DNA of 64,000 bases from Rhizophagus irregularis (GCF_026210795.1 NC_089433.1:2914001-2978000); one strand, 5' to 3'. Shown: positions 14,114-54,567, counted from the first letter of the stretch. A program made the numbers and translations. Notes: generated by a model not told the origin, from the sequence alone.

Positions 14114-16108
14114 TGAGCTTGGCGAAATCGTGGAATTAATAATTTAAAATAATTATAATGCAAAATTTTACTAGTCGGCGGAAGACCTGTAACAGTTTTC
14201 GAATTTCTACGATAATTACAATATTATATGATGTTTTTAAAATTATAAAAGAATTTATTGTTCAATAAACTTATTGTACTCGCAAATTTATTAAAATCAG
14301 TAGAACAAGAGATAATGTAAGAAATCCTCCGTTTAAAATGTTAAATGTCTTGGGTGGTAGCTCAATTTCGTGACAATGGGAGTGATGATCTGATGTTGAT
14401 CAATGGATTATCCGAAAAAATTCTTGAGTCTACATGCGTTTTATTACCGCTCTAGCATACCATATGTAAGTGCGTTGTTTCAATTAAATCTTTTAATAAT
14501 TGTTAAAGCTAATAAATTATTACTTTTTAAGATACAAAATATCGTTTTAAATTTTGTATAATATTTTGCGCGATATTAGTGGTGCCGACATAACTGAAAC
14601 CAAATACTAAAATTGTTTTATTATTTTAGGTTTAGCTAGTTGCATACAATACGCAATTTGATAACAATACATTCCAAAAAATTTGTTTTCATCATAAAAT
14701 AATCATGAAACTCAAAAAATTTTTCTGAAGAAAACTCCGATAAATGCTTATTTTTCGGCATGTGATCAATTTTCTAAAAAATTTTTTTATCAACAATTAT
14801 AATTCCGTTAAAACTCCATTAGTTCACTACGCGAATACATCTATCAGAATTAAGATTTTTAAGCCGGAATGTGTTATATGTGTTATACGGTATAGTGTAT
14901 ATAATAATATAATTCTGAAGATTATTTACATTATAGTTTTTTTAATTGTAAATATTATTAATAGGGAATAGAGATATCTAGAGATATCGGCCGAAGACCT
15001 GTAATCTACACGATACTAGTAATTAATAAATGCGTTACTAATTTTTTTTTAAAAAAAAAAAATCGGCCGAAGACCGTTACTAATACTGATTTCAATATTG
15101 GATATCTAATAACAATACCAGTCATTAAAATCCCGCATATTCCTAATCGACTGAACAATAATTTTATTATAATAATATTAATATAAATCGCATGAATCAT
15201 ACGCATCATACGCGTATCCAGATAAATTTGATGGTGGCAATATGATCAAAATTTTTTTGGGGGAACTACTGCAATTCCGTTAATATTGTCTACAGTATAT
15301 TATGTCAGATTAATCCTTCTTTTTTCTTATTTAAAATTTTTTTTATTAACAAGTTTCAGAATATGTGTTTATTGGAACTTTGGTTCTCAAATTCTAAACC
15401 ATGTGTATAATTTTACCATTTTAGCAATTTAGAACAACGTTCGTAACGCCTCAAATGATAAAATTTTCACTTGATACAAATATTCCGTTTTACATCAGGA
15501 CCCTAAATAGGTAACAAGAGGGCTTAATATATAACTCTACGCATCTCTTCAGGGTCAAAGTTACATAAAGCCGCCTGGCATTGTTCAAAAAAGGAAGGAT
15601 CTACATATTAGTTTAGGGTTCATTCTACGTATTGTTACCTTTTTATGTATTTGATAAATGATACCACGGGGATCTGCAAGAAACCGATTGTAATAAGGAA
15701 TAATAGTAATAATAATATTTCACATTAATTATTTCATGGCGTAAGGGCTTGAAAATCATTGTTTTATAAATAATAGCCATTATTTATATATATGTACATA
15801 TATATTATTTCTTTTAAAGAAAAGAAGAGTAACACAAAATTTTCATATTGTTTCATAGCTACCACGTGTGATCCTTACCAAAATCGGTTAAATCCATTTT
15901 TGATTGTTAATAATAAGAAAAAGAATTGTTGTAATTTAGAATGACACCTCATTTAGGTTACGCTTACGTCCTTGAAAACTTTCTAGAAATGGGACTATTT
16001 ACTTGATATCATCTTTGATTTGTAACTTAAAACGTAATAATTGCAATTACATCAAATAATAATAACAAAAAAAAAAAACTTTTGTATATTATACTATCAT
16101 TTTAAACT

Positions 16109-16215
16109 CGAAACATTTAAGGATTGTTTTACGAAAAAGAGTATCAAGATATTTCCAATATAATCGGATTAGAATTTTAGTATTATTTTACGTTTGTTTC
16201 GAAATATTATAAATA
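16109..16215 (+). promoter_or_regulatory. Putative promoter of peptide gene A: CGAAACA motifs and TATA box
   Basis: cgaaaca at 16109-16115, tgtttcgaaata at 16195-16206, tataaata at 16208-16215. All are retained in copy B. Confidence 0.5.
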
Positions 16216-16340
16216 TGACTTCAAATTCTCTTTCAAATTTTCTATCAAATAAAACAAATCTCAAAAAAGTTAAATTACTTTAAATCAAAAAAAAAAACTT
16301 CACAAAGACTAATAATTTTAAAATAACAAATCGAATCAAA

Positions 16341-16436
16341 ATGAATCCAATCATCAATACCAAACCAGTTGTTATTGTCACTTCTGAAGTAACTGAAAAA
16401 CCGGGTAATCCTACCAACTCATGTTCTATCATGTAA
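16341..16436 (+). CDS. Candidate farnesylated lipopeptide (a-factor-like) pheromone precursor A, 31 aa: MNPIINTKPVVIVTSEVTEKPGNPTNSCSIM
   Basis: A-rich start context (caaaATG), no signal peptide, terminal CaaX box CSIM directly before TAA, upstream TATA, near-identical paralog with conserved frame. Confidence 0.75.
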   Translation: MNPIINTKPVVIVTSEVTEKPGNPTNSCSIM

Positions 16437-17295
16437 AACGCAAGTTTTACTTTGAAATTTACTTTGAAAAAAAGTTTTTACTCTACAATTGTTCTTTTTA
16501 TTACTTCCGACGGATATAACTGAAGAACGGAATAATTCCTCTTATTTTACTGACCTGATGCTTATTATCTCCTTAACGATTTTTACAAAAATGAATCAAT
16601 TTATTTTTTATTTTTTTTTTAATTTTAATTTATCTTGTAATTTATATGTCCGGAACGCAGTTCTAAATTCCCTTTATTAATATTATCCCAACTTTTATTA
16701 ACTTTATAACACGTGATTTATAATAATAAGCGATGGGTTCGTTTACCTAGTTGTAAATATTTTTATCTTATCTTAATAATAAAAAATTTTGAATCGTAAT
16801 CTATTAACAAATTTTAAATATGTGTATCGTTTTAAAAGTGTTTATATTAATGAATTTTCTATAAATTAAATCTTGAATTCATGATTTATATCATGAAAGA
16901 AATATTGATTTTTGACTTTGAAAATAAGTTGAATGAATGAAAGTTAAAATTGAGAAATGTAATCCTTAAAAGCATCAGCAGCGGCAGCAACAGAACCGGC
17001 GGTAGTAGAACTAATTTAATAAGTAAAGAGAAATTTTTGTACAGGCAAAATTATATTCAAATGAAAATATAACAATGATCGTATTGTTCTTTTCTATCAA
17101 AAAAAAAAAATAATAATGAGAAAATACTGGTTAAGTAGAATTCATTTTCTTCAAGCAAAATAAAATTCAAAGTAAAAAATTAAACGAACATAAATAATGA
17201 ATATTACACTTATTATTTATATTAATTTTAGCAAAATTATAATTAAAGTTAAAATCCAATGTAAATTTTCTCATGTCCCACGCTTTTATCATACT

Positions 17296-17459
17296 TTTTT
17301 TTTTGTCCGGAGCGGAGCGAAGGACAATATATGTCATCTACGCACTATGAAAAAAAATTGATCACGTGAATTTCTCTGTCCGCCACGTGATCGTCATCCA
17401 ATGAAATCGCAAATTTTAGTTTTTCGCTCTCGGACTTACAACGGTTCCCGTTTCCTAGT
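17296..17459 (+). mobile_element. Short Helitron/Helentron-like non-autonomous element
   Basis: T-run then gtccggagcggagcgaaggac, subterminal inverse ctctcggac, and 3' hairpin aacgg-ttc-ccgtt followed by ctag|t. Confidence 0.45.
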
Positions 17460-18551
17460 TTAATTTGTCATTATTTCTAGGCGCTTTAATAAATTGATCA
17501 CATGTTTGAGTTTTTTTTTTTAGAGAATTTTTTATAGGGTTTCATAATGATAAATTTAGCAATAAAAATTTAATTAGAGATTTTTACTTAAAAATCCTCT
17601 ATATTAATTATTATTATATAATTTGTTATCAAATATCAGATATATATTATATACAAATAATTACTAATTCTGGAAGAGAAATTAGTTATGTATAAGGAAC
17701 ATGTAAAACTTACCAATGCATTATGGGATATCCTAATGTTTTGAAATCAATTCAATCAATTCATAAAAAATCTAAAAAAGACATAACAAGGATATGCATG
17801 AAACAGATTTAATTGAGAAATAAAGGTCATGAACTGTATTAAGGAGAGAGAAAATTATCAAACATTTAAAAAGAGAGATTTTAGTTTATAAAATCTTAAG
17901 AATTTGAGTTTTTTTTTTTTACTGAGACATTTCTTTTTTTATTTAAAAGTCCTCGTGAGTTAAAATAATAATTTAATCCTTTTGATTTACATTTCGCAAG
18001 TCAAGCTGCTGTGATTTGAATCATATAAATTAAAATTGGTTTATTTGGATTCTAATTCATATGCTACTAAATTGATCATTTCTAATTTTGAAAATTTGAT
18101 CATTAATTTGTAAAGATGCTAAATGATTTTTTTACTAGCAAGAAAATATTATTCTTGAAAATTGCAAAACATTATATTTGCAAATATTATATTTACGATA
18201 ATATGAAATATTATAATGAAATGTTACTAGTTTACTAGTTGATGGAAGAACTAAAATTAGTTACATAACAGTTTTCGAATTTTCTTTAATAATTACATGA
18301 TATCATTTTTTTTTTATTCAGGAAATAAGGTTAAATCTATTTTTGATTGTAATCCTAATTTAATAATAAGGATTGTTGTGATTTAGAATGACATCCTATT
18401 TTGGTAGGTTTACGTCTTTGAATACTTTCCTGAAATTGGTAAATGCATAAATCAAAAAGAAGGGGTCTATTTATTTTTGATTGGTAACTTAAAACAACAA
18501 TTGCAATCGTATCAAATAATAATAATGAGGAAAAAAAAAAAAATTTAAACT

Positions 18552-18645
18552 CGAAACATTTAAGGTATCAAGATATTCCGATATAATCGGGTTAGAATTT
18601 TTAGTATTATTTTTGATATTCGTTTGTTTCGAAACATTATAAATA
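18552..18645 (+). promoter_or_regulatory. Putative promoter of peptide gene B: CGAAACA, palindrome TGTTTCGAAACA, TATA box
   Basis: cgaaaca at 18552-18558, perfect 12-bp palindrome at 18625-18636, tataaata at 18638-18645. Confidence 0.5.
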
Positions 18646-18787
18646 TGACTTCGAATTCGCTTTCAAATTTTCTATCAAAATAAAAAATCTCAAATAAAAA
18701 AAAATCTCAAAAAGTTAAATACTTAAATCAAACGAACAAAAAAAAACTCCACAAAAACTAATAATTTAAAAAAAAAATCAAATCAAA

Positions 18788-18883
18788 ATGAATCCAATCA
18801 CCAGTACCAAACCAATTGTTATTGTCACTTCTGAAGTAACTGAAAAACCGGGTAACCCTACCAACTCATGTTCTATCATGTAA
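18788..18883 (+). CDS. Candidate farnesylated lipopeptide (a-factor-like) pheromone precursor B, 31 aa: MNPITSTKPIVIVTSEVTEKPGNPTNSCSIM
   Basis: Same architecture as copy A: 4 nucleotide differences in 96, no indels, identical C-terminal 21 aa including CSIM-stop. Confidence 0.75.
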   Translation: MNPITSTKPIVIVTSEVTEKPGNPTNSCSIM

Positions 18884-19597
18884 AACGCAAGTTTACTTTG
18901 ACCTTTTCTTACTTCCGACGGATAACTGACGAACTGAATAATTCCTCTTTTTTACTGACCTGGCACCTTATTATCTCTTAACGATCTACAAGAATGAATC
19001 GTAATTTATATGTCCGGAGCGACGGAGCGTAGTCCTTTCTATCATAATTCCCTTTTGGATTAAACTATTTCCTTTTAATCTTTGTATTTATTTGTAACAT
19101 GTGATTTATAGTTACACGGATTCACAATAAGCGACGGACTTACTGTATATTATTTTATTTTATTTTATTTTAATAATAAAAATTTTGGATCGAAATTTGT
19201 TAACAAAATTTAAATATGTGTATCGGTTTAAAGTGTATATATTAATGAATTTTCTATAAAATAAATCTTGGATTTCATCATAAAGGAAAGATTGGTTATT
19301 GGCATTGAAAAAAAGTGAAATGAAAATTAGAATCTAAAGCTTAACTAACTAATTTTATAATAATTAATAATAACAGGCAGGATACGTAAAAGGAGAAATT
19401 TTCGTACAGGCAATATTTTATTCAAATGAAAATAAAACAATTGATCGTTCTTTTCTATCAAAAAAAAAAAATTTCTTTAAACATTGTTGAAATAAAAAAT
19501 CTATTGTCAAAATAATGAGAAAATACTGGTTAGGTAACCCAAATAAATTGGGTTACGCACTCATTTTTCCAGCACATTTGTGCAATCCTGTATCACA

Positions 19598-19856
19598 TAC
19601 AATAAGACCGTCGGTCTTTTTAAGGACCGCAGTCTTTTAAGACCGATCGGTCTTTTTTCTTTTTTTTTTGCAAATAAAGAAATTTTTTTAGCTTTAAATT
19701 TAATTTTATCATATGAAGACCGGTATGAGGACCGGTCAGTCCTCAGGTCCGGTCCTACTGCGCCACAAAAAATGCAAGACCGCGGTCCGGTCCTACAAGT
19801 CATGGGACTGACCGGTCCAGGACCGAATAGGACCGGTAGAACCGATGAACATCCTT
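19598..19856. mobile_element. Partial copy of GGACCG-rich MITE
   Basis: Reverse-complement match to about 24383-24625. Ends in agaaccgatgaacatcct, similar to the termini of the fuller copy. Confidence 0.75.
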
Positions 19857-19859
19857 AAT

Positions 19860-21050
19860 CGACTTCTTTAATTCATCCAACCTGAATTCCACGAGCCAAA
19901 ATATGATCATTGGCATAGTCTTTCTTTGCGATCACCAAATCTGTCGTCCCATCTATTTCGAAAGAGAGCGCATGATAAAAGTTCCTTTTTTGATCTAATG
20001 TCATAAAAATCACTTGTAGCAGAAACTTACATTTGCCAACTTTTTTCGAATAATCAATAGGCCATTATTCGCACTAATTCCATGAAATTCTATCATTTAC
20101 TTATGTAACTCAATAATAATATGTATATTATTTCGGGAGGTTGTATAGGAAATAAATTTACAACTTTGTTTGGGGAACAAATCTAATACCATTTAGAGTA
20201 ACAGGGCGGACATCCTCATATTATCACATTATTGCCGATCATTTTGCCGATCATCTATTTTAATATTATCACATAAAAAATACCATTTTTTTGCAAATTT
20301 AACTATATAAATTTTATTTGTTATCAAAATTCATCCAAAGTCCGAAAATTAATGTTTTCAAATCCAAAAATTAACTAAAACCCAAAAATGGGCTGAATTT
20401 TAATAATAATTAGAAAATTAAATTATTTTAATGATATTGTGACAACCAGTGATTAAAATTTAATTTTTGTTAGTTTTTTAGATTCATCTCGTCAAGACAA
20501 ACATTTTGATAGTAATTTCATAAAATTTTTACACTAAATTGATTGAGAAATTGCATTTTGAAAATTTCTATTTATTATATAGATTATAACAAATATAATT
20601 GCAAGTATAAATTTAGCCATAACTTCTTGATTACCTAAAATTAGGAATGATTACTTCGGCCATTGATTTTAAATCAGTTAAACTATGACCCATAAAAGTT
20701 TCAAGTTTCGGCCAAACTTCTGTGACTTCGGCCGAAGCTTTAAAGTCTGATATCACCCAATTTACTATAAGATCGGCAAATGATCGACAAGGTGATATAA
20801 GGATGTCCGCCCTGTTATTTAGAGTAGCCGCAATATCTACATTAGGATCACAAGGTTGCTCGAGTCGAAAAGGACGTTAACTACCCATAGTATAAATAGC
20901 CTTGTTGCAGTTTCATTGAATTCAGGCTCGTTCACTTGTTTAATTAACTTCTTAAGCTCATAAATGGTTATGTTATTTCCTGCTATGATTCTGAAATAAC
21001 AATCAGCAGGTTTACCATGAAAAAGACAGTTAAATGTGATCTCAAATCCA
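19860..21050 (-). pseudogene. Crinkler (CRN)-like effector remnant interrupted by a MITE
   Basis: ITFNCLFHG...F.I....TIYELKKLIK...EF...A..F.LWVV matches the CRN N-terminal ubiquitin-like domain pattern. An NNIHIIIE (HVLV-like) boundary motif lies on the other side of the insertion near 20110-20135. Stops and frameshifts are present. Confidence 0.7.
20200..20816. mobile_element. MITE with 9-bp target-site duplication (Mutator-like by TSD length)
   Basis: TIR aacagggcggacatcct / aggatgtccgccctgtt. Identical flanks atttagagt at 20191-20199 and 20817-20825. Confidence 0.9.
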
Positions 21051-22704
21051 ATAGCCAACAGGAGGTGAAAGAGTAGCAATAGTTAAAGTAGCTGAAGTGG
21101 ATGGAATAGACTTAATAGACTTCTTGGTAGTTGAAGTAGGATTTGACTAATTTAGGATTGAGGTTTAGCAGGTTTTTTTCCCTGACTTACAGAGAAATCT
21201 TTGTAATACAGAATACATTTCCAATTACACTGGGTTTATTATCAATTAATTAAATCAAAGTTTATAACACTAACTATATCATGGAATGTGTATTACTAGT
21301 TGAATATCTATGCGTAGTTAGTATGTCGTTAGTATCTATACAATTATGTAATTTTCAGCAGTTTACCCGTCTTTTTTGAAATAAAATAAAATAAACTAAA
21401 CTAAACTAATTATGTCATGTGCAAAGTGACATATAAATCAAAGATTTTTTCTCGTGATCGTGTTAGGTTATTAAATAAATTCTTCTAAGAAGTTTCCTAT
21501 TAGTTCATGTCCACTAGCTAGGCATGTTGTTAAGACTTTTGATGTATTTTTTGGAAGAGTAAAGATATCGCAAGATTTGAACGGAGGGTGACCAGAGATA
21601 TAATTAATATGACAGCGAGGATAACCTACTGGAACTGGAGGTAAGGATTCCAAACACTTTCTCAGCATGTTCACGATTGCATAAATTTTCTGAAGGCTTC
21701 AACGACAATTCTTCAAACGTTTGATCATGGGGCCATGATGGTAAGTAACAGTACTAATAATAGCCATTCAGGAAAAACTCGATATTGATGAAAATGCCCT
21801 TTTATTGAAATTTTAAAGACCTTTCTATTAACAAAGTCAAAGATGTCTTTATGATTCCTTAGGAATCAAAAATGAAGTCTACTGGCTACATTTGTAAGTA
21901 GGCTAACAATTAGATTGGTGTGTTACATATAAAAAACCGGTTTTGTAATTTTAGGCTAGACCAAATCTTTCCTCTTTGTGTTTAAACTAAAATAAGTAAT
22001 TTAACAAACAAACTTAATGGCAATCATGCAATGTTAAGCCCACTCCAAATCCTGATTTTTTCAAGGCTTAAGAATATCTATTGTCGAAAGAAAAATCTCT
22101 CACATCATTATCATTATATAACAATTTTTATTTGAAAATAAGGATATTTAATTTTTAATGTGTAAATTATTTCGAAATAAAGGCTGCAAAATAACGATCT
22201 AAAATTAGAATTTTTTTTTTCTCGAGAGAAATTTCATTTCACTCGACGAAAAAACTAAAAATACAGAAATATTTCTTTTTAAGGAAATAATTTAATTTAA
22301 TTGGATTTTCATTTAACAATAGATAAAGTAATTTCATACCGCATTTCCCACATTTCATAACTTTTTGTGTGACATGTCAATAAAAACTTTTCGGTAAAGA
22401 AGTTTCTTCGCTTTGTTATGACTTATGATATTGATTTATTTGATATGTTCAATATTTTATTCTTCATTCACTCAATGAAAAAAAAATTTCTTTTATTGCT
22501 GGAGATAAATCTATGACACATTATTATTTATCTCTTTTAAGATTATGCCGCAGGAGGTGAAATACATATAAAAATCCCAACTTTCCGCTTTATCCAAAAG
22601 ACAACCACATTAAGATTTATTTCCTCTAAATTTAAATAAAGGATATACAAATATATAAATATATACACATACAGACATACTTATATAATATATATACAAC
22701 AAAT

Positions 22705-23718
22705 ATGAAGCTTCAATATCTTCTCTTTGCATTATTCACGGTTTTTGTAATACAAGTTCAAGCTAACGGAGGTTACGATGATTACGAGCAATGGGAACAC
22801 AATTTTCCTGATACTTGTCAAGAACTTTTCAAAACTGAACATTGTAATGAATGTCAATCGTTAATGTGGAATCATTTCAAAAATCCTGGTCAATGTGCTA
22901 CTGCTTTCAATCTTGGCCGTGATATTTTTGAAATTATAAAAGATTCCGGTGAAGAACCAAAACCTTATGATCTTACATTCTTTAAGAAAGGTTTAAATAA
23001 ATATTGTCATGAAGAATTCCATTGTAGTCAAGATAAAGTTGAGAAGATTTATAATAATATACAAAAAGTCTGTAAACATGAATTAAGTGTTAAATTTGAT
23101 TGGAGTGATAATCCTGAAAATTTTAAAAATATTACCGCTTACGCTGCTTATGGTACTTTGCTCACTTATTACACTGGAATTCCTGCCCGAGAAGCTCTTT
23201 GTACTAAAAACAAGCATAATAATGGTGAGTTGTGATTTTAAAGTACAATCTTATTTAATGTTCTTTAGTGTATATCTTAAAATGTAACATTTGTAACTCT
23301 CAATTATATAGATTTCTATAGTTTTGAATTCATTGAGAAACTCACTCAATGGGTAAAGAATGAAACAAACGCTGATCCAAAGGCTGTTGTGACCCACGAC
23401 CTTAAATTTGTTATCAAAGGAAATGGAAAGAAAGTTCGTGTTCCAAAATCGTTCTTTTGCGATCCATGTTGGAGAAAGATAGCCCATATCTATGGTGATT
23501 ACATCAAAGATCATAGATTGAAGAAATCTGTCGAAAAGAATATTTGGGGATCTTGTCATGACTTAGAAAAACTATATCTCCCACATTGCACTTATAAACG
23601 TGGTTTAGGTGAAATTTTGAAAGATAGAAGTGATTCTAAATTAAGTGAACGTAACGCAAATCCTGCTTTTGGCGTTTTAAGTCATCGTATGAATAAATTA
23701 CATTCTTTAGCGATTTAA
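22705..23718 (+). CDS. Secreted cysteine-rich protein, about 309 aa, unknown function
   Basis: Signal peptide MKLQYLLFALFTVFVIQVQA. Exons 22705-23224 and 23312-23718 join in frame. 12 Cys including two CxxC. TATA-like tataaaa near 22567. Confidence 0.85.
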
Positions 23719-24382
23719 AAATCTTTTAGATAATAATCTAGACTATAGAGATGGATATTATAAGATTATGATTTTTTTAGATTCTTTTTAGACATAACTA
23801 TTCTAATTATTTTATTATTAATAAGTTTATCATTTAAATCTTCCTTTTGCTCAATTGTTCACATTTTCATGAAATGTTATAAAATACATATAAATAAATT
23901 CGTTCATAATTTTTAATTTCATTTAACGCAGAAAAATCAATACTGTACACATTTTTATACAATTCATTTGCTAGGTGCTATATCTTTTCTATTTTAACTA
24001 AATGATTCGTAGTTTATTTTTCTGTATTATTCCAACTAGCAATAGCAGAATTCTTTTGTATTATACTTCTCTTGTTTTGACCTATCTTTAAATTAATATT
24101 TGTATTTGCTACAATAAAATCATCAGTATGAATTCTGGTTTACTTGGCACTTTCTAACTAGTCTAATAACTCCGAGAAGTTTATTTCCATGCCTTAAATA
24201 TCAACACTTTTATTTTGTTAATCAAAAAATATTAATATAAGAGCTGCAGATTTAAATTTATACGAGAGAATATCGATCTAACTAATAACTATGCATGGTC
24301 GTAGCAAAATTTATTTCACAATAAATTTATTCGACTTCATTTCACTAAATTACCTGATAAAAATTTACCTGGTTCCATTTAA

Positions 24383-24724
24383 GATAGTTATCGGTCCTAC
24401 CGGTCCTACTCGGTCCTGGTCCCAGGACCGGACCGCGGTCTTGCATTTTTTGTGGCGCAGTAGGATCGGTCTCGAGGACTGACCAGTCCTCATACCGGTC
24501 TTCGTATAATAAATTAAATTTAAAGCTAAAAAAATTTTTTTATTTGCAAAAAAAAAGAAAAGAAAAAAGACTGATCGGTCTTAAAAAGACTGCGGTCCTT
24601 AAAAAGACCGACGGTCTTATTATATGCGGACCGAAAGACCGCAGTCCTACACCAAGACGGACCTGTCCGTCTTTTTAAGGTGTAAGACCGTAGGACCGCG
24701 GTCTTTTAGGACCGATGACCATCA
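24383..24724. mobile_element. GGACCG-rich MITE, near full copy
   Basis: Imperfect terminal inverted repeats gatagttatcggtccta / taggaccgatgaccatc. Many internal ggaccg/cggtcc motifs. Homologous to 19598-19856. Confidence 0.75.
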
Positions 24725-26032: not shown

Positions 26033-27592
26033 ATGTCAGAGATCAATATAAATTTTTGTCCTTTTGACGGATATTTTTTAGGTGACGAAGATAAATGTAG
26101 TTTTTGTGGATTTGATAGGTAATATGATAATTTTGAAAATTTTAAACTTTCCAATTTCTTCCTGTTTTTAAGAATTTTATCCTACTTTCAAATTTTAGAA
26201 TTTTTGCTGCTAATAAAAATTGGGTAAGCTGATTTTTTTTTAAAAAAAAATAATTTTAAAAAATTATGCCTTCATTATTTTTACTTTGAAGGGCTCGTTG
26301 ACGAATTCACCCACAAATAAACGTGAACCATGGCGTAAATTATTATGGATAAAACAAGATTATCCAGATAATTACGTAGATAGTACTTTTCTCGAAGAAC
26401 TAGAAAAAAACGGTGAATGATGATTTTTTTTTTCGTTTTTTATCTTAGCCTTTAGTTAACATATATGTAAAAAAAAAGTTAACGTTAGAGCATACGATTA
26501 TTGGGCCGTATTAAAAGAATCTTGCGTAATTTCACAACATATAAGCAGCATAGTTATTTTTATTGCAGTATTTATATATTTATATCTTGATATGTTATCA
26601 GCACAAAATTTAATCATAAGCGGAACTGTGTTCACTATAATTGGATATATTTTTTGGGATAAAAGTATCTCAAAAACTGACCCTTCTTATGAGTACAAAA
26701 GTAAGTTATTTTAGTTATGGCCTTTTTTAGGTTTATATTTATCTTTATTGGAAAAAAATGAGTATTGATAAACATTTTACTTAATTAAAATAAGGATGGA
26801 AAACTGCAAAAGGAGCAGTACTTTTTTTTGCAACATTATTATGTTTGTCACCAATTTTAAAAACTTTAACAAAAGATACAAGTAGTGATACAATATGGGC
26901 TTTGACTGTTATTTTATTTCTAGCCAATATGTTATTTCATGATTATGGTTCTGAAAATAGGACTAACATCAAGTAAATAATCATATTTAATTTTATTTTT
27001 AAACAAACTTTTTTCTTTTTTTTTTTTTAAAAAAAAAAAAAGATATTAATTATTCTTTAATAGATTCCCTGGATCATTATCAACAAATGCTGCTATATTT
27101 TCTTCAGTTTTATTAGCTTCTAGATTACCTTCAAATTCTCATGTTTTTGGATTAATGTCTTTTGCTATTGAATGGTTTGCTTTATTTCCAATTTTCAGAA
27201 GATATATCAAAGTAAAATTTATTTTATTCATGAAGTTTTTTTTTTTTTAATTGTTCAATATTTGTATTTCTAACATTACTAAATTTGTTTCAGAGCCTTT
27301 CAGTTGAATTCAATATAGCATTAACTTGTTTATTGTTTATGCTGGCTACTGTATTATTTTTAAATATTTCAAAAACCATTGTAATTCTTTATATTTTAGG
27401 CATTACTTTTATAACTTTTGTTTGTCCTTTTTGGTTAATTTGGATACAAAAATATAAAAAGTAAGTATAAATTAAAAGAATTATTTTTTTAAAAAAAAAA
27501 AATCATAAAACCAATTGTTTAATCTTTTTTCTTCTTTTAGCGAGATTCATGGTCCATGGGATGAAGCTAGACCAAAAATTACAACATATTAA
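26033..27592 (+). CDS. GPI2: Phosphatidylinositol N-acetylglucosaminyltransferase subunit C (PIG-C/Gpi2)
   Basis: Missed by the ORF track because the exons are short. Signature motifs WRKLLWIKQDYPDNYVD..FL, SPILKTLTKDTSSDTIWAL, SLSTNAAIFSSVLLASRL and C-terminal IHGPWDEA. The first two exons (26033-26118, 26199-26223) are inferred from in-frame GT-AG joins. Confidence 0.92.
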
Positions 27593-27976
27593 TTAATTCA
27601 CAATATAAATTAATCACTAATAGAATATCTTTAAATAATTATAATTACAATTGATAATTGATTCTTAATTTCTGTTACAATGTAAAATTAATAGAAAATA
27701 GAGTATGAGGTTACTCAAATCTGATTAGATAAAATTTAATAATTTATCAAAGGTTACTATACTTTCGTTTAAATTTTGAATTTATTTAAGAGTTTATTAA
27801 AGCTAGTATATAATTTATTCAAGAGTTTATATATTATAGCTAGTTATATTATTTATACTCAACATAATTTTTAATTCTTATAAAAAGTTTATTTGAAGTT
27901 TAAGTTGAAAGATTTCTATGAACAACAAACAATCACTAATCTTAAATGTTCTTCCCCCCCCTTCCTTATCATCGTC

Positions 27977-30900
27977 TTAGTCATCATTGTCTTTATCATC
28001 GTCATCTTCACCACCACTTTCATTTTCATTATTCTCATCCTCTTCATCCTCATTTTCTTCCTCTTCGTTATCCTCATCATTATCCTCATCATCATCTTCC
28101 TCATCCCGCTCTCCTTCATCCATTTCATTGTCATTATCGTCTTCCTTTTTAGTGTCCAAATTGGTTTCCTCATCTTTATCAACATCCATTGCTTCCATTT
28201 TAGCTTTTTGCTCTTTTGCAAAAGCCAATTGTTCTTGCATCATTTGATATACATATTTCCCCATATGTGTTACATCAGCAATTGTATATGCGTCCTCATA
28301 ATCATCAACCTACATAATAATTTTTTTTTTTGTTTAAAAAAAATAAGTTATAATAATAAAAGATTAGACAATGTTAAACAATGAAATACTAATATATACC
28401 ATCCTAGACGAAGGCCACATCTCATTAATTTTTAATTGCAATTTATCAGGACGCTCTAGTAATTTATTAAACGTAGGCGCCAATTCATAACAATTTTCAA
28501 ATATAGATCGACGGCAAAATACGTATAGTCCTAATCGAGCACGAGACATTGCAACAATAAGACGTCTAACATCTCGTATATGACCAACAGTTTTTGTACG
28601 AACCAAGGATAAAAGAATATCTAACATTTATATATATTATAATAATTAGTATTAATTGAAAATAGTAAATTACTAAGTTACCGAAAGCATAATAATTACA
28701 ATCATTTTGTTGTCCTTGAAACTTATCGACGGTTGTGACTTTTGCTGGACGCCCGAATAATGGATTCCATGAACACCGCTGACTCAAAACGTCCCTTATT
28801 AAAGCCTTCTGCCCATTGTAAGTTGTTAGAATTGTGATTTTATCTTCTGGATATCTATAATAAACAGATTAAACTTAAAACACTTTGATTTAATAATAAA
28901 AAGAATAATTAAACTATATTTCATTTACCCTAACAAACGCATATATTGGTATACTGCGACAACATATTCTGCCTCTCCAAGATTCTATAAAAAAAAAATT
29001 TATTTGTTAATCAATACCATATTAAAATAAACTAGCACTGCATTTATTCTCACCTGATAGAAGTATGGAACAGGTTCAGTTTCCCCTTTGTTCATAAATT
29101 CTCCAACATTTATTAATTGATAGTCAAACGTAAACCCAGCATTAGCCCATTTATATTCATCCGGCTCGATTACTGTTGGTAAATTTCCCAAATTCTTATA
29201 ACGCCAATTATATAGTTCTGCCATGGAAGGCCTAGCACGCCCCTAATATTATTTATTGAGTCCAAAGAATTGATTAGCATAGTAAAAAAAAAAGGTAGCG
29301 ATAAAAGTTTAAAAAATATACCTGAGAATCTAGATCAATGGTTGGAACACCAAGTTTAACAAATCTGGTGAATAAACTTTGTTCCATGTTTCCGTATTGT
29401 TGAAACGCCATGTTCTTCACTACAGGAGGTAACTGATTATGATCACCAATCATAATCACTCTTTTTAATCTACTTCGCCCATCTTCAGTTTCTTGTAGTA
29501 GCAAAGGTATAAAAGTTTCAACTTCTAAAATTTGTGCTGCTTCTTCCATTACTACATTATCATACTTAAATCCTAAAGAAACCAATTCACGTCGCTATAG
29601 TGAAAAATAAATAAATTAGCTTAATATAAAATCAATATAATTCAATAAAAATAAATACCTTTAGTGCGGCATGAGTGCATGTCATTGCAATGATTTTAGC
29701 TTCTTTTGTTAATAAATAATTAGCTCTATCATAGCTAGTCCTAAGTAATTCAAATCCACGAATCTCTTCAAGTTCCGTGAAAATTTTTTCTATATGTCGA
29801 AAACACCCCACTGCGATTTCTAACGTATCTTCATAACTTGCATCTTCGGGAAATAATGGCTGAGGTGCATCATAAAAATAGGCAGTAAAAGGAAATTCAT
29901 TCCTTATTGTATCTACATTAACGTTCTCGTTCGTTAACCCTTGCCTACATTTATCAATGTAAGGCTCCCATCTCGACTGTACGTGATATAAATAAAAATA
30001 CCCGGCGGTTTCACATGTATATCCATATTCACCACCAATTTGCAATGATTGAGCAAGTCGATCTACTTCCGAAAGCAGGGATAACCGTTTTTCCTATAAA
30101 TTACAATAGCATTTAAACCTAAAATAAAAAAGGAGCAAACAACAAAACAATAATTACCAAAAATGAATTGACTCTGCCATATTTGCTAAAGCTTAATTCT
30201 GTATTGAGTTCCTCTTCACCATGACCCAACCTAAGTAAATGTCTCTCATCAACGTCTAAATTATCAAGATAAAAATAAACAATTATTAGGATAAAACTTA
30301 TTGATTCTTTTTAGTATATACTATATAAAATGTAAATACCAAGTGCCATAATTTTCTCGAACAACTGATTCAGAGCTTGGTTACTGTGTGTAACCAATAA
30401 CGTATGCTGATCAGGGAAATTATGATATAAATTTGCAATAATCTGGACAGCTACATCTGTTTTACCAGTACCTGGGGGACCAACAACCATCGTAAGACCC
30501 GGATTTGTTCCTGCTAAAATAGCGCTTACTAATACAAATATAATCCATTAAAATTAGCTAATATTACCTTTTTTTATTTTTTTTTTTAATCAATAATAAT
30601 AAAGAAGTTTACCTTGTACGGGAGTGAATTTAATCGTATTCTTTCTAGGCTGGTTAAATGGATAAGGGCCCATGTTTGGTAGGCTATAAGTTCTGACAAT
30701 TATCTGGTCTGGGTCCATTTGAGGTTGAGATGGATCTATATTTTCAGCATCCTCAACTTTCCTCTTTTTTGAGGTTGGGCCACCTTCAGTTATAGGAAAT
30801 TGTAGAACATAAGGTGGGGGGATAGGAGCTTTGAAGCCTTCTGCTGGTACAATTTTCTAAATAGAAGTTTGCGTAGTTTTTTAGAACCATATTTATTTAA

Positions 30901-33900
30901 CAAGTTGATAAGCGAACATTAGATTACCTTGTCAGGAAAGCTTTCAATCAAATGATCATAATTTAAAAAAGTATCTCGAAAATCAATTTCTTTAGGTCGA
31001 TTTGGCATCATTGTATAGTGAGCACTACCAGGATGGCCATAACCTAAGAATATATTATGTAACCAATCTGGTACAACCAATTCACTTTGCATTAAATCAC
31101 GAATTGTTTCAAGAACAGACTTAAAATTGTTTTCCTAATAATGTTTATAATAATTAAAATATAAAAAAGAAGTTAAGATATGTCGAATATTACAATAGTA
31201 AATCATAAATGAAATTTACTTTCGGCTTTCTTCTCATCAAAATATTAAAAGTTTCATATACGTCTTCATCTCTGACACTTGAATATTTATCCATATCCAT
31301 CTAGAAGATTAAAATAAAAAGTGAGATTTATTTCTAATTATTTCTAATTTTTGAAAATTTTGAAAACTAAAATTACTTTGTACTGATTCGGGTCCAAAAA
31401 CACACGAATTGTTCTTATATTTCCAGAAATATTGGGTTTTTTATCATCAATACGTGGCTTACCAACTTCATCAATTGGCTTGCCTAAAGAAATTATAATT
31501 TAATATCATAAAAGTGAAAGAAATTTTAAGATTGCAAATTAAATTACCATCATCGCCGATTATATCGCTCACTTCACAACCTCGAATGTATTTTAATCCG
31601 AAATGTTGTCTTTGAAACATAATTTTAAAATTAATTATTTGACAATAAAATGTACACGAAAAAAAAAAATTATGTATGAACGACGCAAACCTGAAGGGCA
31701 TAGCATCATTATATTTTTCGGCTGTTCCATCGTGGGCATGTATTGTTAATAAGAACAAAACATCATGTTGTTTCAAAGAATCCCATTCATTACGGATGGA
31801 TTCCGTATAACGACCTATGTCGAAAGAAATCTATAAAATAAAGATTACATATCAAAACAAATAACTTTAATAATTTACGAAATATATTATGACATTTAAA
31901 ATTATAAACATACATCAGCCTTGACTCTTGAGGGCTTGCTTTCACCGATGTTCGGTTTAGCTACCTCTATTATACTTAAAAATTTTTAGACATAAATTAA
32001 TGATTAATCTCACATTATTGAACGAATTACAAACACGTTTAATTCTTACTTAAATGTTTCTATCTCTACTGCCATACGAGCCCAACCGGTGAATTCAGTT
32101 TTACTCGATGGATATGTAGACCTTGGTGCTAATCGTTTTACAACATCTTCAATATCTTGTCGAATTTCATAAGTTGTTTCCATTCGAAATAAATTGAAGT
32201 TTCTTAATAAATAATCGTGGATAGTGAGAAATTGTAAATTGAGTTTAGGTAATGCAAGCGGTGCTTCATTATTCCAGAATTGAGTTTGCACAACGGCATC
32301 GTCGAATATAGCGTTCTGATGAAAAAAAGTATTTTAATTAATAAATATCTTTTATAAATCAACAAATTACCGGAATATATATTACTTAAACTAACCTCAT
32401 CTGGATAAAGTGGTTTCGAATTTATTAAATCAATTTGACTCGTTCTCTTTTCAAATTTACAAACTAGCACCTCCACTAAAAAATCCTTATCGTATTGTCT
32501 TTCACCAACCAATTTATTTGTTCTTATGCTTAAAAATCCACATAGTCTTATTATTTCTTCATGAGTTAATGCATTAAAATGTTTTTGCAAGTCAGGTCTC
32601 CGTTCAATAGAGGCAAAATTTGATAATGCCAGTGATTGCAAAGAGTCCCTAAAATGTTCGAAAGCAATGTGCTATAATAAAAAAAAATGTTGTAAATCTA
32701 TACCAAAGAATATATTATCAATTCAACTTCATAATTAAAAAATACCTGAAGATCAGCCAATTTTTTACAATGTAATTCTGTCATCTGGTCATCCGTCAAA
32801 GCTAAACCAGTATTATCATCAATTTCAAAACCAACATAGAATTTTAATATATCTAAAAGCTGCTTAAAAAGTTCACTACAATTAAAAAAAAAAATTAAAT
32901 AAAATTCTAAAAGTAAATAAAATATCTAAAATAAAATTTATATTAAAATTTAAATTAACTAACTTTGCGCTATCACGCTTCATTATTGGCGCAAATTTGC
33001 ATAATATTAATATATGGTGATCTTCTAATAATTTATTAAAATAACGTCTTGTTGGGAGTTGTGCTTCAAGGTCAATCAAAAATTCCAAACAACGTTCAAG
33101 AAATGCTATAACTTCATTGTTCACTTAAAAATAAATTGAAAATATACATATCATTTAATATTAATTCAAAAAAAAAAAATTATATACATATAATTTTAAC
33201 ACTGTACCTCCTCCATCTTCGGGTATTGTATATAAAACTTCCACAAAGGCCTTCATAAAATTGCTTAACCATGTTCTCTCAAATATAATTTTTTCCTTTT
33301 GTGATTCATCTAAAAATTTAATTTTAGTTAGAACATTAAATAATAACCATAAAATACATTAATCAAATAAATACTATCAAAGTACGAACCAAAGAATCAT
33401 AGAATACCTGCTTTTTTGAACTTTTTTGCAAATACATTCCACATCTTTTTTAAATCTTTATTATTTGCAAATTCCTGATCTCTCAACGATGATGTACCAA
33501 AACAATGCCACGTTACAAGTGACACCAATCTGCAACAAAAAAAACCAGATATAAAAAACATTCAGGATGATTAAATTAACTGAATAGAAAAAAAGTCTCT
33601 TAAACATACATCATACATTCTCCTCTGATTAATGGATTTTCTATACTCTGAAAAACACGAATTAGGAATAAAACTATATATTTTCTCACTTTAGGCGAGA
33701 GTGTGTTTGCAAGTGGTGGAATGGAAAGCTCGAGAACACGTTTGAAGAAACCTGGAAATTGTTCAGGGCTTTTCATAAAACAATCTAATGATATATTAAT
33801 AAAGAAATGAGGCGAAATTAGCTCTTATTTGAATTATTAGACAAGCGTTTAAAGAACTTACCCCATGCAGCAACTCGTTCCCGAAACTTTTCATTAACCA

Positions 33901-40465: not shown

Positions 40466-43400
40466 CTTTGTTAGAGAACAAGGTCCTACTCTACTAAAAA
40501 AAATGGAGAGAGAGTGAGGTGAAAAGTTGTTCTCACACTGGTCACACTGGTTACAAAATCTATTTATAAGTAAATATTTATTGTTTCCAGGAGAGGATAT
40601 TTAATATTGAATAAAATGATCTTTACCACTTGTGGTAAAGACTCTAACGGTTGAGCCTTCTATTGTTTCTTAATGCATAAAAATTCTCAATAAAAGAAAT
40701 TATTGCTTATATATCATTTTATAATTTAAAAAAATAAATAAATTATGACCACTATTCCAATACGATCAGTCTCTCAATTTTTTTTAAATAATAAAAGACT
40801 TTGCGTTTTCTTGATTTGCGAATATAGAATATGAAGCAGGGGAGAAAACATATATGCAGGAAAAATTGGATAATGATGAGGCTGATAAACTCCGGATAAT
40901 GATGATGCAGATGAGCGATCCGTACTACGAAATTTTGATCATATGTTTGTTAAATAACGATTATCACTTACAGTCTTACGTAATATATACATTGCCGTCT
41001 ATAAATTTGAATGAGAAAGAAAGAGAATTGTTAAAAAGAATGGAAAGGATTTTTATGCTTATTGTAAGTAATTAATAATCTTTTCAGTATTTATAATTTC
41101 ATATAATTAACTATATTATATGTTAGGAAAAAACGAGTTAGAATTTGTAATGGTACATTAAAGACATTTCAAGACTTAGAGATAGCGCAGTATAAAAATC
41201 CTTTGGTTTGTTATCTTACTTTGTTCTTTATTTGAAAATACACAGGCAATATTGATAAACCGGTCTCATAAATTCCATCAATAAAAATTTTATATATATC
41301 AAGAAATTCAATATATTAAGAATAAATTTATTAATAACCCCCAACTCCGGTTCAAATTGTCCGAGATTCAGTTTATCAAGACTATCTGTGTACAGATATA
41401 TATATTTTTAACTGTTTAATTTCTAACATGTGACTTTTTTTTTATTAAAGAGATTGAATAATGATGGAGAAGCTGGATTAAAAAGATTTTGAAGAATATA
41501 TATATATATGTATATATTAAAGTAGCTTATTATTGTAATTATTATTTTTTTTCTCTCTCTCTAAATTGATTTGTTGAATATTTATAATTAAAAATCGTCT
41601 CTAATAATTTAGGTTCGTGGAATAAATTTAAAAAGTACGATATAAATTGATCAAAGCTAACGGATTTATATCGGGAATCAGACAGATATATTCTACTGAT
41701 ATCAGTTCTGTCACCTATAAAAGAATTTGATGACGAATTACCAGAAGTCCACCCCTAAATTTGATGACGATGGATTATCAGAATTTCTTTCTAGCCCACC
41801 CAGGTGCAAATGCCGATGATATTTGACACACTTATGATCTTCATGATGCCAAAAATGACGAGGCCTTGAAGTGGTGGTGATAGCATATGAATATGTTCGA
41901 GTTTTCTCCGATAAGTAAGAAAAGATTTTATTTATAAAGGGTAGGGTGTATTTTATCCTTCAAGTTAGAAATATTCAGTAAGATGATCGGTATTAAACCC
42001 ATAGTAGAGGTAATTGTTATGTGTTGTTGAGATTAAATTACTTCATCAAGTTTTCTTTTGAAAATTTTAAAGTTTTTTTTATTAATTTTTTTTCTTATAG
42101 GACTCCGGCCCCAAGACTGTTTCCTGAATCGCAGGTAAATTTTCACTTTCGAATATTTAAAAAAAAATTTGGCTTTTTTTATTAATTTGTTTTTTCTTTT
42201 CTGGCACCGGAATCCCAGATCAAAGTGACTTTAATTTCTTGATGAAATAAATTTCATAAGACTAATATCTATTTATTAAGGATATTAAATATATTATCAT
42301 CTACGCCTTCCAACCATAATGAAATATAAATCCTCCTACTTTATGAGTTGCGATATGTTAGGTCATGGTAAATATTCGCTTTAATAGCGAAGAAGAAAGA
42401 AATCAACGATAATTCAAATAGTAATATGATGAACCCATCCGGAAGATAATTACACAAATAGATTATTTAAATTCTAATAATCGGTTTCATAATGCCGGCA
42501 TATGCTGCAATACCTTTAAAAAAAATCTATTAAAAATAGATCTCTTACAATTGAAAAGAAAGAAAAGAGGTAACCTATTAATGTGAAATTTAAGAGACGC
42601 AAGACTTACTATAAAGTGACTATGTACTTCTATTTATTTTCCAATTAATAAAAAACGATATAATTAATAACTACGATTTTTAATATTACTTGTACCATTC
42701 ACATGATTTCTGAAGCGAAAATTCGAAATTTTAAACGATCCGGTATGTCTAGAAAGCGTACGGAAAATGTACAATGTATCGTAATGTGAAAGATTTTAGA
42801 CATTATCCAGACATTATCTGGACAATGAGGACAAAATTCCGGAATTCCTTTTGTATTATTTTTTGGTTAATAAATATTGCAATTCAGAACACTGTTTACA
42901 TTAATTGAAGAAACCAATTTTAATTTCATTTTCACCAAATCAACTAAAAATATGCTTGTAACCTTAATTCAGAATATATAAGCCGCAAATGATTTTGCAT
43001 CATTTATTAGATGTTTAGAGAAGATTTGTGACAAACTTGTTAAGAACTGTGATATTTCAGATATAAAGATCATAATTTTAAGGATAATTTAGAACAGTTA
43101 CAATTACTTTGCTGTACTTTGTACTTTACCGCAAAAAAAAGAGATTTTTTAAATATTCCTATATCATTTATGGATTCTAACCGCCAAACTTTCATCATAA
43201 TATAAATATTGAAAAATTTCGTAGGCACAAAAAAAAAAGGATATTACTAAATTAAAATTAAGGAAAAAGTAGATTAGATTATGTATAGTACTACATACAA
43301 AGAAAGGTAGAATGCACACGCTCTACTCTACACGAAGCCTGATACCCCACATTTAGAAAAAAAATTTTTGGTAGATCTAATAGAAACTTACTTATCTGAT

Positions 43401-47382: not shown

Positions 47383-49246
47383 TTAAACCCTCTTTTCAAA
47401 AATCACACCAGCAGTACTTGTTTCAACTGGTAATGCCGTAAAACCCGTTCCTCTGCTTTCTTCAATTTTACTACTTACTGTACGAAAATTATATTTTAAG
47501 ATAACGTTATGCATAAAAAATTTAATATTATTTACAGCAAGTTGTCTTCCAGGGCATCTAAATAATTTAATAATAACTGAGTTGTTGACTTACTGTACTA
47601 CAATACATATATACATAAATATACTCACGTGTGTTTACCATTTCCAAATGTCAAAAAATTTTTAGTGACTTTTGATGCTACATTTATATCTAAATGTCTG
47701 AATGGTTCAAATGATTTTGGTTCATCTCGATAAACATCATCAATATAAATACTAGTTATACAATTTTTTGGTATTTGCAATCCATTAGAGAACGTATAAT
47801 CTTTCTTTACGAGATGGTCAATTCCCGCAACATTTACACTTAATCTTAATGTTTCTCTAATAAAACTATCTAATTTTTTCATATCACTAAGAGCTTCAAA
47901 TGGAATTATACCATTTACATTCGTTTCTTTATGAACTTTTAATTGTTCTTCATATAATTCTTGCATGTACTCGGGTCTTGATGCTAAACTTAAAATAACA
48001 TTTGTAATGGCTATTGCCGTTGTATGAATTGATGCAAAAATGATTAGATATATTCTGTCTAAAAGATACGGACAACTAATATTATTAGGATCATGTTCTT
48101 CCATTAGATCTTGAAGATGATCATCAGGACGTTTCCAAGAGTCACCATATTTTTCTTTCTCTTGTAAACGTTTACATACTTGCTTTTCTATATGTTTAAG
48201 GAGTGGTTTTCGATGTTTAACTGCTGGATTATATAATCCTAATCTTATCTGAATACGATTAACATATTCTTGAAGTCCTGGATAAATTATATCAAGAAAT
48301 GGTGGAATAGTTAAAAATATCATGCTATCTATTATAAAGTTTGCAAATGAATTTAAAACTTCTTCATGTTGTGATTCCTCCTATAAAAAGAAGTAATTTT
48401 CTTTTAAAACTTTTTTTCTTTCAAAATTAACTAGTATCATAAAAAAAAAGTATCTATACTTACTTCACCAATAATAATATTTGCAATAGGATCAGAAATA
48501 ATTTTTGTTACAATTTCAAATAGATTATAAAAAATTTTTGATTCATCACAATCTCCAAAATGTTTTTGAGTTGATAAATAAACCCTTTTTTGCATACGAT
48601 CAGAATAAAGTTTTAATTTGCTAAAGATCGTGTCTTTAAGTGTTTTTGGTGCAACTGGTGAAACTTTCAGCAAATCTGGACATAATACATCTATCGGAAA
48701 TCGTTTGTTGAATGCTTTTAAAACATCAAACACATCATCTCTTGAATATACTTCACCAAAATGTTCTTTTCCTACAAGTTTGTGCAGTAATTAAAAAGAA
48801 TTTATAAATTAGAATATATAAAATATTTTATATTTATGCAAAAAAAAATACGAGCAATCTCTATACCAACAAATACTCTCACTTGACCCCATATATATAG
48901 ACAAAAGATATCACCATACTATTATATATAATTAATAATTAACGTTAATTGAATTTTTACGCCAAAAAAAAAAAAATTCGTTGATATACGAACTTCTTCT
49001 CTACATTGTTTAAGAAATTTTTCGGGATTTAAAAAAAAATCAAAAGTATGGCCAATAATTGGGAATTTGTAAGAAACAAGTGGCGGCATGGTCTAAGAAA
49101 ATAAAATAAAATAAAATTGAGAAAAAGGAGAAAAAGCGATAAAATTCTGTTTAAATCAATTATCTTACCAATTCTGGTTCACGCTTACGCTTTAAAATGT
49201 AAAGCGTTATAAACAGAAGGGATCCCAAAATGATCGCTTGATACAT
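47383..49246 (-). CDS. Cytochrome P450 (paralog of 56801-58670)
   Basis: N-terminal anchor MYQAIILGSLLFITLYIL, PPLV, I-helix FASIHTT, LDSFIRETLR, FEPFRH, heme loop FGNGKHT|CPG split by an intron. Confidence 0.92.
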
Positions 49247-49539
49247 TTTTAAGAGAAAAAAAAACAATTTCGTATATTCAAAGTTTAAGAATTGTGGTTA
49301 TTTTAATTGCTGTTGACTTTTTATCTTTTTATAGATAGAGATTTTCATCATTTAAATTAAATTATCTAGAGCTAGTTGATACACAGTATGATCTCATTTA
49401 TATTAAATTATCTAGAGCTAGTTGATACACAGTAGAGGGAATATTTTCCAACGATCACATAATTCCGGCCAGAATTACAAAGTTGAAGGTAAAGCAAAAA
49501 GATGAAATAGAAATAAAATAAAATAAATAGTAAAAAAGA

Positions 49540-49663
49540 AATTAAAAACCTAAAACACGCCTTCGCTGCAGCACTGAGAGAACAAAGATGTCAACTCCTC
49601 AAAATCTAAATGCTGATTGGCTTATTCATCCGTCCGGCGCAGCGCGACGGGCTACAGCTAGTT
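49540..49663 (+). mobile_element. Helitron-like 3' terminus remnant
   Basis: GC hairpin ccgtc-cggcgcagcgc-gacgg followed within about 10 nt by ctag|t. Left boundary uncertain. Confidence 0.45.
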
Positions 49664-50178
49664 TATCATAAATTTATTATTTATTGATGACATTCTAAAT
49701 TCGTCATATTATGAAATAAATAGATTTGGTATTTTGCTAAAATTTTTAGTGTTACAAACTAAATTTGTCTCCATTTTGTTAATTATAATTTATCGGAGAT
49801 ATAATAGAGATAGTTTATCGTCATATTATAAAATAAATAGATTTGTAAAATTTTTAGTGTTACAAACTAAATTTGTCTCCATTTGATTATTATTGTAATT
49901 TTAATTTATCGGAGATATAATAGAGATTATCGTCATATTATAAAATAAATAGATTTGTAAAATTTTTAGTGTTACAAACTAAATTTGTCTCCATTTGATT
50001 ATTATTGTAATTTTAATTTATCGGAGATATAATAGAGATAGTTTATCATAAATTTATTATTTATTGATGACATTCTAAATTCGTCATATTATAAAATAAA
50101 TAGATTTGGTATTTTGCTAAAATTTTTAGTGTTACAATCTAAATTTGTCTCCATTTTGTTAATTATAATTTATCATAG
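49659..50178. repeat. Tandem repeat of about 110-150-bp units, 4 copies
   Basis: The core aaaatttttagtgttacaaactaaatttgtctccattt recurs near 49739, 49847, 49959 and 50119. Confidence 0.9.
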
Positions 50179-54104: not shown

Positions 54105-54567
54105 TTTTTGTTCTTATAGTTAATTCGTGATTCATATGAGAACCAGAGCTATTTATATTAAAAAATCGGGGATATCAGTATAAATTTGTAATGATATAAT
54201 GATATAGCATATGCAACTCATGCGTGGTACATCACTTAATACGGTATTACACACGTTTCAAAAAATAAAAACCGGAAAAAGAAATGCATCATATAAATTT
54301 TTTAATTTTTTAAAAGAAAATTTAATTGAAAATCTAATTTTTAAAATCTGCCGATCAAATTGTCCGATCTAATTATCCATTCAAAAATTATTTATACGGG
54401 GTAAACTAAACGTTACCGATCGACAGGAATTTTATTAGTATATTAAATCAAGAAATTGATTTATTAGCAGGGGAGCTGCTATTTGATTTATTTCATTGCA
54501 TTATAAAACAATAAGGACGATTAAATAAATCATAAATACTTTTTTGAATTTTTATTTCAAAATTTTT

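Follow-up and report, generated by a model that had tools for sequence, protein, structure and literature searches.

The described genes closest in layout to those considered here are the ones for yeast a-factor and S. pombe M-factor (MFA1, MFA2, mfm), which are short open reading frames (ORFs) that lack a signal peptide, end in a CaaX box and are best conserved in their C-terminal part; the a-factor core is hydrophobic. Such genes are typically multi-copy (10.1101/2021.09.28.462209), and an a-factor ending in CSIM is reported to support normal yeast mating and to be cut by Rce1, not by Ste24 (PMC9231725). In Rhizophagus and Glomus cerebriforme one Ste3 receptor and an Ste6 exporter have been reported, and the authors attributed their failure to find a pheromone gene to the short length of such genes (PMC3834313). 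The subject of this work is a tandem pair of genes for 31-residue CaaX peptides in a stretch of 64,000 nucleotides of Rhizophagus irregularis DNA (GCF_026210795.1 NC_089433.1:2914001-2978000), referred to below as the window. The pair probably belongs to a family of a-factor-class precursors of arbuscular mycorrhizal fungi (AMF).

The peptide genes share with the a-factor and M-factor genes the short ORF, the apparent lack of a signal peptide, the terminal CaaX, the multi-copy state and the best conserved C-terminal part, and CSIM is known to be functional on a-factor (PMC9231725). In contrast to them, the AMF family has no detected sequence homology to these pheromones and no conserved Asn cut site, its core is polar and Pro-rich, and it lies outside Dikarya. 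A full-text search of the main text of mostly open papers returned no description of CaaX pheromone precursors in Glomeromycotina. One paper that mentions both Rhizophagus and CaaX (PMC8778642) is unrelated to the family, and a 2020 study of co-inoculation reported no upregulated pheromone genes (PMC7490403). The gene models used in that study would probably have passed over ORFs such as these.

The original prediction placed two 31-residue ORFs ending in CSIM and a stop on the plus strand, and exact translation recovered both, ORF 1 at 16341-16436 and ORF 2 at 18788-18883. The A-rich start contexts and the lone Cys four residues before the stop, which it had also pointed out, are present in each. 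The CaaX box with the stop codon of copy 1 covers 16422-16436, and the only hydrophobic stretch of the peptide is 4-5 residues long. Both genes are part of a tandem duplication with units of about 1.2 kb, delimited by self-BLAST and alignment: unit 1 (15886-17111, plus strand) comprises promoter, gene and 3' region, and unit 2 (18329-19472, plus strand) is 69% identical to it overall. The ORFs themselves agree at 92 of 96 nucleotides with no gaps, and their flanks are less alike (55-74% identical, or 68-88% if gap columns are omitted). Three of the four differences change a residue; these three are all in codons 5-10, and none of them falls in the last 21 codons.

Of the 396 ATG-initiated ORFs with 20-60 aa that the window contains, three have a strict CaaX at their end, the mean in 20 Markov simulations of the window being 0.3, and no CSIM ending appeared in these simulations. 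The third such ORF (42703-42789, plus strand, 28 aa, ending in CIVM) is unrelated in sequence and within chance expectation. A single CaaX ORF taken alone is therefore weak evidence, and the observation rises above chance because the peptide family is conserved. The description of the pair as unannotated held for the exact peptides, neither of which occurs as such among 15 billion proteins, but not for the paralogues, which are present in NCBI and UniProt as hypothetical proteins.

A phmmer search against 1.84 billion representative proteins gave 14 matches, 13 of them belonging to the family, and successive profile searches, three in all, returned 49, 53 and 60 matches among 1216, 564 and 4926 candidates. 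The resulting set comprises 75 proteins; an unrelated 609-aa repeat protein (P0005) was removed before all family counts. Every named member comes from Glomeromycotina, the rest being metagenome proteins, and the family spans the three orders Glomerales, Diversisporales and Gigasporales (R. irregularis, R. clarus, Acaulospora colombiana, Diversispora epigaea, D. eburnea, Cetraspora pellucida and Gigaspora rosea, with a weak match, E 9, in Dentiscutata erythropus). The nearest named relatives of the window peptides are R. irregularis models of 81-84% identity. No relatives were found among 121 candidate stretches from 185,579 prokaryote genomes or among 75 from IMG/VR, the ESM Atlas search gave nothing usable and Rfam gave two chance-level matches, neither over the peptide genes. 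In searches limited to called genes no named relative came from Paraglomerales, Archaeosporales, Mortierellomycotina, Endogonales or Mucorales; since the searches depend on shared 5-residue words and called genes, the missing lineages are no evidence of absence. The expectation of multi-copy CaaX peptide genes in an arbuscular mycorrhizal fungus is supported by this conserved family, whose members retain the frame and the CaaX.

Each unit consists of M-N-P, a variable pro-region, T-E-x-P, a linker of 1-5 residues and P-T-N-x-C-S-I-M. The motif [TSV]N-x-C is present in 69 of the 75 proteins and is followed by SIM in 71 of 87 occurrences, while C-x-x-x stands at the very C-terminal end in 47 of 75, as CSIM in 44. 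In 28 of 75 proteins a second TE-x-P unit follows an internal CaaX; this count includes P0003, a possible gene-model fusion of two adjacent genes. The spacers of two-unit proteins read CSIM-x-[KR]P or CSIM-H/Q/Y-S/T and contain no dibasic Kex2 site. Single-unit genes are common in Glomerales, and both window genes have one unit and no internal-CaaX repeat. Some second units of Gigasporales proteins (P0074, P0075, P0076) diverge (TEDP...) and are possibly a second peptide type or a gene-model artefact.

Several copies occur per genome, as seen from the tandem pair in the window, paralogue contigs, a second promoter at the metagenome locus L002 and P0073, a single R. irregularis gene-model region with three family copies. 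P0060 and P0073, both labelled R. irregularis, each join a sense copy to inverted copies, one or two in number, that the gene model reads in antisense, and the antisense-read letters match the antisense frame of the window over the core. Together with the nearest relatives, this match places the window in Rhizophagus, probably in R. irregularis. The two models also show that inverted clusters of the family exist.

The pro-region differs between orders: that of Glomerales is hydrophobic, Diversisporales have a run of Ser/Thr in its place, and Gigasporales have a short one. This bears on the rather unlikely alternative that the peptide is an intracellular prenylated micropeptide, a subunit or regulator anchored whole, as a 28-mer, in a membrane by its farnesyl group and never exported. 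The hydrophobic pro-region (K/R-P-V-V-I-V..SEV) is kept in Glomerales better than a disposable spacer might be, the genes are many and are transcribed in several studies, and prelamin A, a protein that stays inside the cell, has CSIM as its CaaX (PMC9231725). However, the pro-region is exchanged or shortened in the other two orders and only the C-terminal core stays, internal CaaX boxes between repeated units are pointless unless the units are separated by cutting, and the peptide has too few residues to form a domain.

Eleven metagenome loci, taken from 149 candidate stretches, allowed the family to be followed in DNA. Variable columns in 20 conserved codons of 13 units number 8, 3 and 16 at codon positions 1, 2 and 3, and the pooled dN/dS over these codons is 0.11, a value biased low because it covers only two blocks picked for conservation, leaves out locus L011 and combines related, not independent, pairs. 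Indels in the linker preserve the reading frame. The pattern indicates that the coding frame is under purifying selection. The antisense frame, which has the same wobble position, was considered as a coding frame and rejected, since stops interrupt it in 7 of 13 sequences. An intact gene from ATG to the CSIM stop was found at 7 of 11 loci. The other four are damaged: the terminal Cys is changed to Tyr in L005, the ATG is missing in L008 and L010, and L011 has a frameshift. Together with the intact genes, this looks like birth and death of copies. The genes flanking family members differ from locus to locus. Locus L002 ends with a second copy of the promoter, which suggests that it holds another tandem array. 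At L007:2867-3698 Pif1-helicase-like (Helitron-type) fragments adjoin a family gene.

Transcription of copy 1 was assessed from contigs of public sequencing runs. Among the runs listed, 20 of 24 (15 studies, 11 organism labels) contain 0.82-0.88 of the words that make up the copy-1 stretch, and none is labelled RNA on record. X1 and X2 were recognized as RNA because the GT..AG introns of the adjacent GPI2 gene are missing from their contigs, and X17 is DNA, since its 10.5-kb contig runs across introns; RNA status was established from splice joints for X1, X2 and X21, and X5 and X12 are presumed RNA only. In both X1 (16244-16799) and X2 (16270-16712) one contig runs free of substitutions through the whole of ORF 1, including the stop, and single contigs do likewise in X5 (16269-16689) and X12 (16271-16807). 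The probable transcript of copy 1, represented by single intron-less contigs in these four runs, two of them RNA, thus spans 16244-16807, and no splice joint departs from the stop region. The contigs cover copy 1 as its own unspliced unit and tell neither its strand nor its level or exact ends. In three of the four runs they start at 16269-16271, about 60 nt past the TATA box. The DNA run does not break off at this point, and the coincidence hints weakly at the 5' end. X1, X2 and X12 also have contigs from paralogues; three of the four ORF substitutions listed in them are synonymous. Copy 2 had no long contig among the matches listed in the four presumed RNA runs, so that its transcription is neither shown nor excluded, and the shallow RNA run X21 (5 of 30 bins), with no cover at either gene, is no evidence either way. 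At 21810-23612 X1 and X2 have no cover and X17 has; this was not used as evidence.

The named database copies are hypothetical proteins, most of which read beyond the CaaX stop. The ATG-TAA junction formed by the last codon and the stop contains GTAA, a mimic of a splice donor, in both window copies and in 8 of 10 loci with the motif. Gene finders would take this GTAA for a donor and splice beyond the stop, which accounts for the longer models and would be a systematic annotation error hiding the CaaX.

These data bear on the highly improbable explanation that the ORF is incidental to a transcribed repeat, a non-coding RNA or a misread exon. The multi-copy state with decayed copies at 4 of 11 loci, the annotated models that make it an exon of longer proteins and the conserved non-coding motifs on both sides (see below) would agree with it. 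Yet substitutions gather at third codon positions, linker indels stay in frame, RNA contigs pass the stop with no splicing, the donor mimic accounts for the longer models, the flanking genes differ between loci, and there is neither an Rfam match over the genes nor a common 3' fold. Neither a terminal exon of a longer gene nor a transposon ORF, the two origins that would have undone the original prediction, applies to ORF 1. None of the three refuting conditions that were examined, namely loss of frame or CaaX in relatives, lack of transcript cover and such an origin, was borne out.

Both genes are preceded by the promoter element CGTTTGT followed by TATAAATA, located on the plus strand at 16191-16215 for copy 1 (TATA box 16208-16215) and at 18621-18645 for copy 2 (TATA box 18638-18645). 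TATAAATA lies at -133 from the start of ORF 1 and at -150 from that of ORF 2, in accord with the TATA box expected about 130-150 bp upstream. The pair of motifs has two matches in the window, both at the peptide genes, where 0.01 are expected, and recurs in 4 of 11 metagenome loci (L001, L002, L004, L006). No ATG intervenes between TATA box and start, the sole ATG there overlapping the TATA box itself. TCGTTTGT sits directly 5' of the TATA box in both copies and in the same four loci; we liken it to HMG-box sites, and in copy 2 it shares nucleotides with the palindrome TGTTTCGAAACA. Exact forms of the Ste12 pheromone response element and the Ste11 TR-box are absent from the 450 nt upstream, where only one-mismatch forms occur, and therefore neither Ste12 nor Ste11 is claimed as a regulator. 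Downstream, the motif G(G/A)CCT(G/A), which CTTAA(C/T)G often follows, is conserved at 16552-16557 (copy 1) and 18957-18962 (copy 2), both on the plus strand, and in 8 of 11 loci (among L001-L010). No consensus fold was found for its region, and it is possibly an mRNA control element.

The conservation pattern allows the mature product to be predicted. In the two-unit proteins of Diversispora and Acaulospora the units are alike only from about TE-K-P onward, and this onset probably marks the core. Conservation both across orders and between the Diversisporales units sets in there, which is why the cut was assigned to T-E-K-P or a position immediately before it, and a core beginning with E-K-P, as first proposed, is supported by this boundary. 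In copy 1 the predicted core extends from E19 (perhaps T18) to C28 (16395-16424, plus strand); that of copy 2, placed in the same way (E19-C28, 18842-18871, plus strand), is identical. In 59 of 80 units the core has 10 residues from E to C, the full range being 9-13. The charged dipeptide expected at the cut was found in part: the first residue is E in 71 of 72 distinct units, but K or R follows in only 53 of 72, and the search pattern partly selects for both. The linker of 1-5 residues between TE-x-P and PTN-x-C is likely the specificity element; records labelled R. irregularis contain the variants KPGNP, KPDGNP and KPAQP.

The favoured explanation, held with fair confidence, is that the family encodes a-factor-class lipopeptide precursors with a core of about (T)EKPGNPTNSC-farnesyl-methyl ester, which would signal between hyphae through Ste3. 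Farnesyltransferase would modify the Cys of CSIM, Rce1 would then take off SIM and Ste14 would methylate the new end. N-terminal trimming would free a peptide of 10-13 residues starting at or beside T-E-K-P, here about EKPGNPTNSC, an Ste6-type ABC transporter would export it, and Ste3 would receive it and feed the Fus3/Ste12 cascade, so that the signal would serve recognition between hyphae. CSIM is reported to be fully farnesylated by the human enzyme (PMC11152559).

Other known peptide signals share parts of this anatomy. Mature pheromones of mushrooms have 11-13 residues (PMC7288658), comparable to the 10-13 predicted for AMF, and the predicted AMF core mostly starts, like those of Coprinopsis, with an acid-base pair, E-K (PMC3068285). 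Unlike the agaricomycete genes (Coprinopsis, Schizophyllum, Lentinula PHB), whose precursors have 53-72 residues, the AMF genes encode 30-35 per unit, show no clustering with receptor genes among the ORFs scanned and low allelic diversity, and keep K/R after E in 53 of 72 distinct units only. Tandem units with internal CaaX-like spacers, found in 28 of 75 family proteins, are also known from rhodotorucine A (RHA) and the h-type precursor HPP1 of Hypocreales (PMC3068285), but the AMF proteins have two units rather than three, their single-unit genes are common in Glomerales and a dibasic Kex2 site is absent. The KEX2-processed repeat proteins (KEPs) of R. irregularis are earlier candidates for AMF peptide signals (PMC6339444); they have signal peptides and Kex2/Ste13 sites, as in the alpha-factor type, whereas the CaaX family appears to have neither. 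The trisporoids of Mucoromycotina are the pheromone system of the sister lineage, but are derived from carotenoids. Mucoromycotina have been reported to lack pheromone receptors of the Dikarya type (PMC5705715).

An exported lipopeptide could instead be directed at the host plant or at bacteria and not at the fungus's own receptor, which is considered quite unlikely. The named matches are confined to obligate symbionts, the core is conserved across orders as would suit a broad-host signal, the copy-1 stretch occurs in runs from 11 organism labels and 15 studies, which we guess to be root samples, and an arbuscule-specific ABC-B transporter has been reported in R. irregularis (PMC4692070). Against a host target, an orphan receptor and exporter of the a-factor type are reported in the same fungi (PMC3834313), the precursor anatomy agrees at each point with that of fungal pheromone precursors, and the restriction to Glomeromycotina may stem from how little a search can reach when the query has 30 residues.

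Several observations weigh against precursors of a hyphal pheromone. The peptides have no likeness to a known pheromone, matching no Pfam family and no PDB entry beyond chance-level Pfam matches. Translation, prenylation, export and receptor binding of the peptide are extrapolated from the known pathway. The yeast a-factor rule that an Asn precedes the cut does not hold in the family, the linker ending in N, K, D, Q, H or E; this rule, executed by Axl1/Ste23, is described as specific to yeasts (10.1101/2021.09.28.462209). CSIM is partly geranylgeranylated when farnesyltransferase is absent (PMC11152559), and the case for Ste3, Ste6, Ram1 and Ste14 in AMF rests on one 2013 paper, which reports a single Ste3 (PMC3834313). 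The search pattern is partly responsible for how well P and N are conserved in the unit profile, and the low bias of the dN/dS value, the damage at 4 of 11 loci and the residue changes that make up 3 of 4 differences between the window copies are further points against. The only two-unit gene checked in DNA, L005, is a single frame with a mutated last Cys. Neither an Ste3 nor a homeodomain gene was found among the 12 + 18 proteins scanned in the window ORFs and in the loci of 1-4 kb, with some exons outside the scan.

If the family encodes such a pheromone, sensing of partner or self with no restriction by mating type is the favoured mode, and strictly mating-type-specific action the lesser one. 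All orders have similar cores, a second peptide class did not turn up and a single Ste3 is reported; the first two of these points count against the pheromone as well and are a poor fit with two mating types. No linkage of the peptide genes to a MAT or receptor locus was seen among the ORFs scanned, their neighbours being genes for kinases, GPI2, Aquarius, BTB-TLDc and P450s. In favour of a mating-type-specific role are the three linker types in records labelled R. irregularis and the case of filamentous ascomycetes, whose pheromone genes are also unlinked to MAT. Pheromones of these fungi can be common to several species and need not be restricted by mating type (PMC10569646). Mating-type specificity is so far not supported, and population data of R. 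irregularis have been read as asexuality (PMC11414155). Vegetative fusion of Neurospora is reported not to need pheromone receptors (PMC6455062), which weakens a role in anastomosis; the same finding speaks for a role in mating. A bolder proposal, that these are the first lipopeptide pheromones outside Dikarya, an AMF Ste3 ligand whose linker variants give strain or mating-type identity and trigger cryptic mating, is regarded as tentative and rather doubtful.

The window as a whole is AT-rich fungal DNA with genes for tandem-repeat kinases, GPI2/PIG-C, the Aquarius helicase, BTB-TLDc proteins and P450s. GPI2/PIG-C (26291-27983, plus strand) and Aquarius (27977-33800, minus strand) converge, one X1 contig joins both, and their 3' ends appear to overlap. 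At 20526-21360 a fragment of a Crinkler N-terminal domain (20840-21082, minus strand) lies beside a multi-copy stretch covered by contigs of RNA runs. An inverted pair of MITE-like repeats (270 bp, GC-richer, 85%; 19596-19862 and 24374-24626) encloses a gene for a Cys-rich predicted secreted protein with no Pfam match (22705-23718). Three short tandem-repeat arrays are located at 49653-50174, 54532-55028 and 62899-63825, and a P450 pair is duplicated in inverted orientation (47459-49248 and 56799-58600).

Sex in arbuscular mycorrhizal fungi is a long-standing question, in which a receptor and an exporter of the a-factor type have been reported since 2013 and the ligand gene was not found. A lipopeptide of 10-13 residues can be synthesized and given to spores, hyphae or a yeast Ste3 reporter with no need to transform the fungus, and the question is therefore directly testable. 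If the reading is true, the candidate is the missing ligand of a pheromone receptor reported in supposedly asexual plant symbionts. As a true Ste3 ligand it would make lipopeptide signalling older than the split of Dikarya and Mucoromycota, and as a non-sexual signal it would still be a first defined peptide ligand acting between AMF hyphae.

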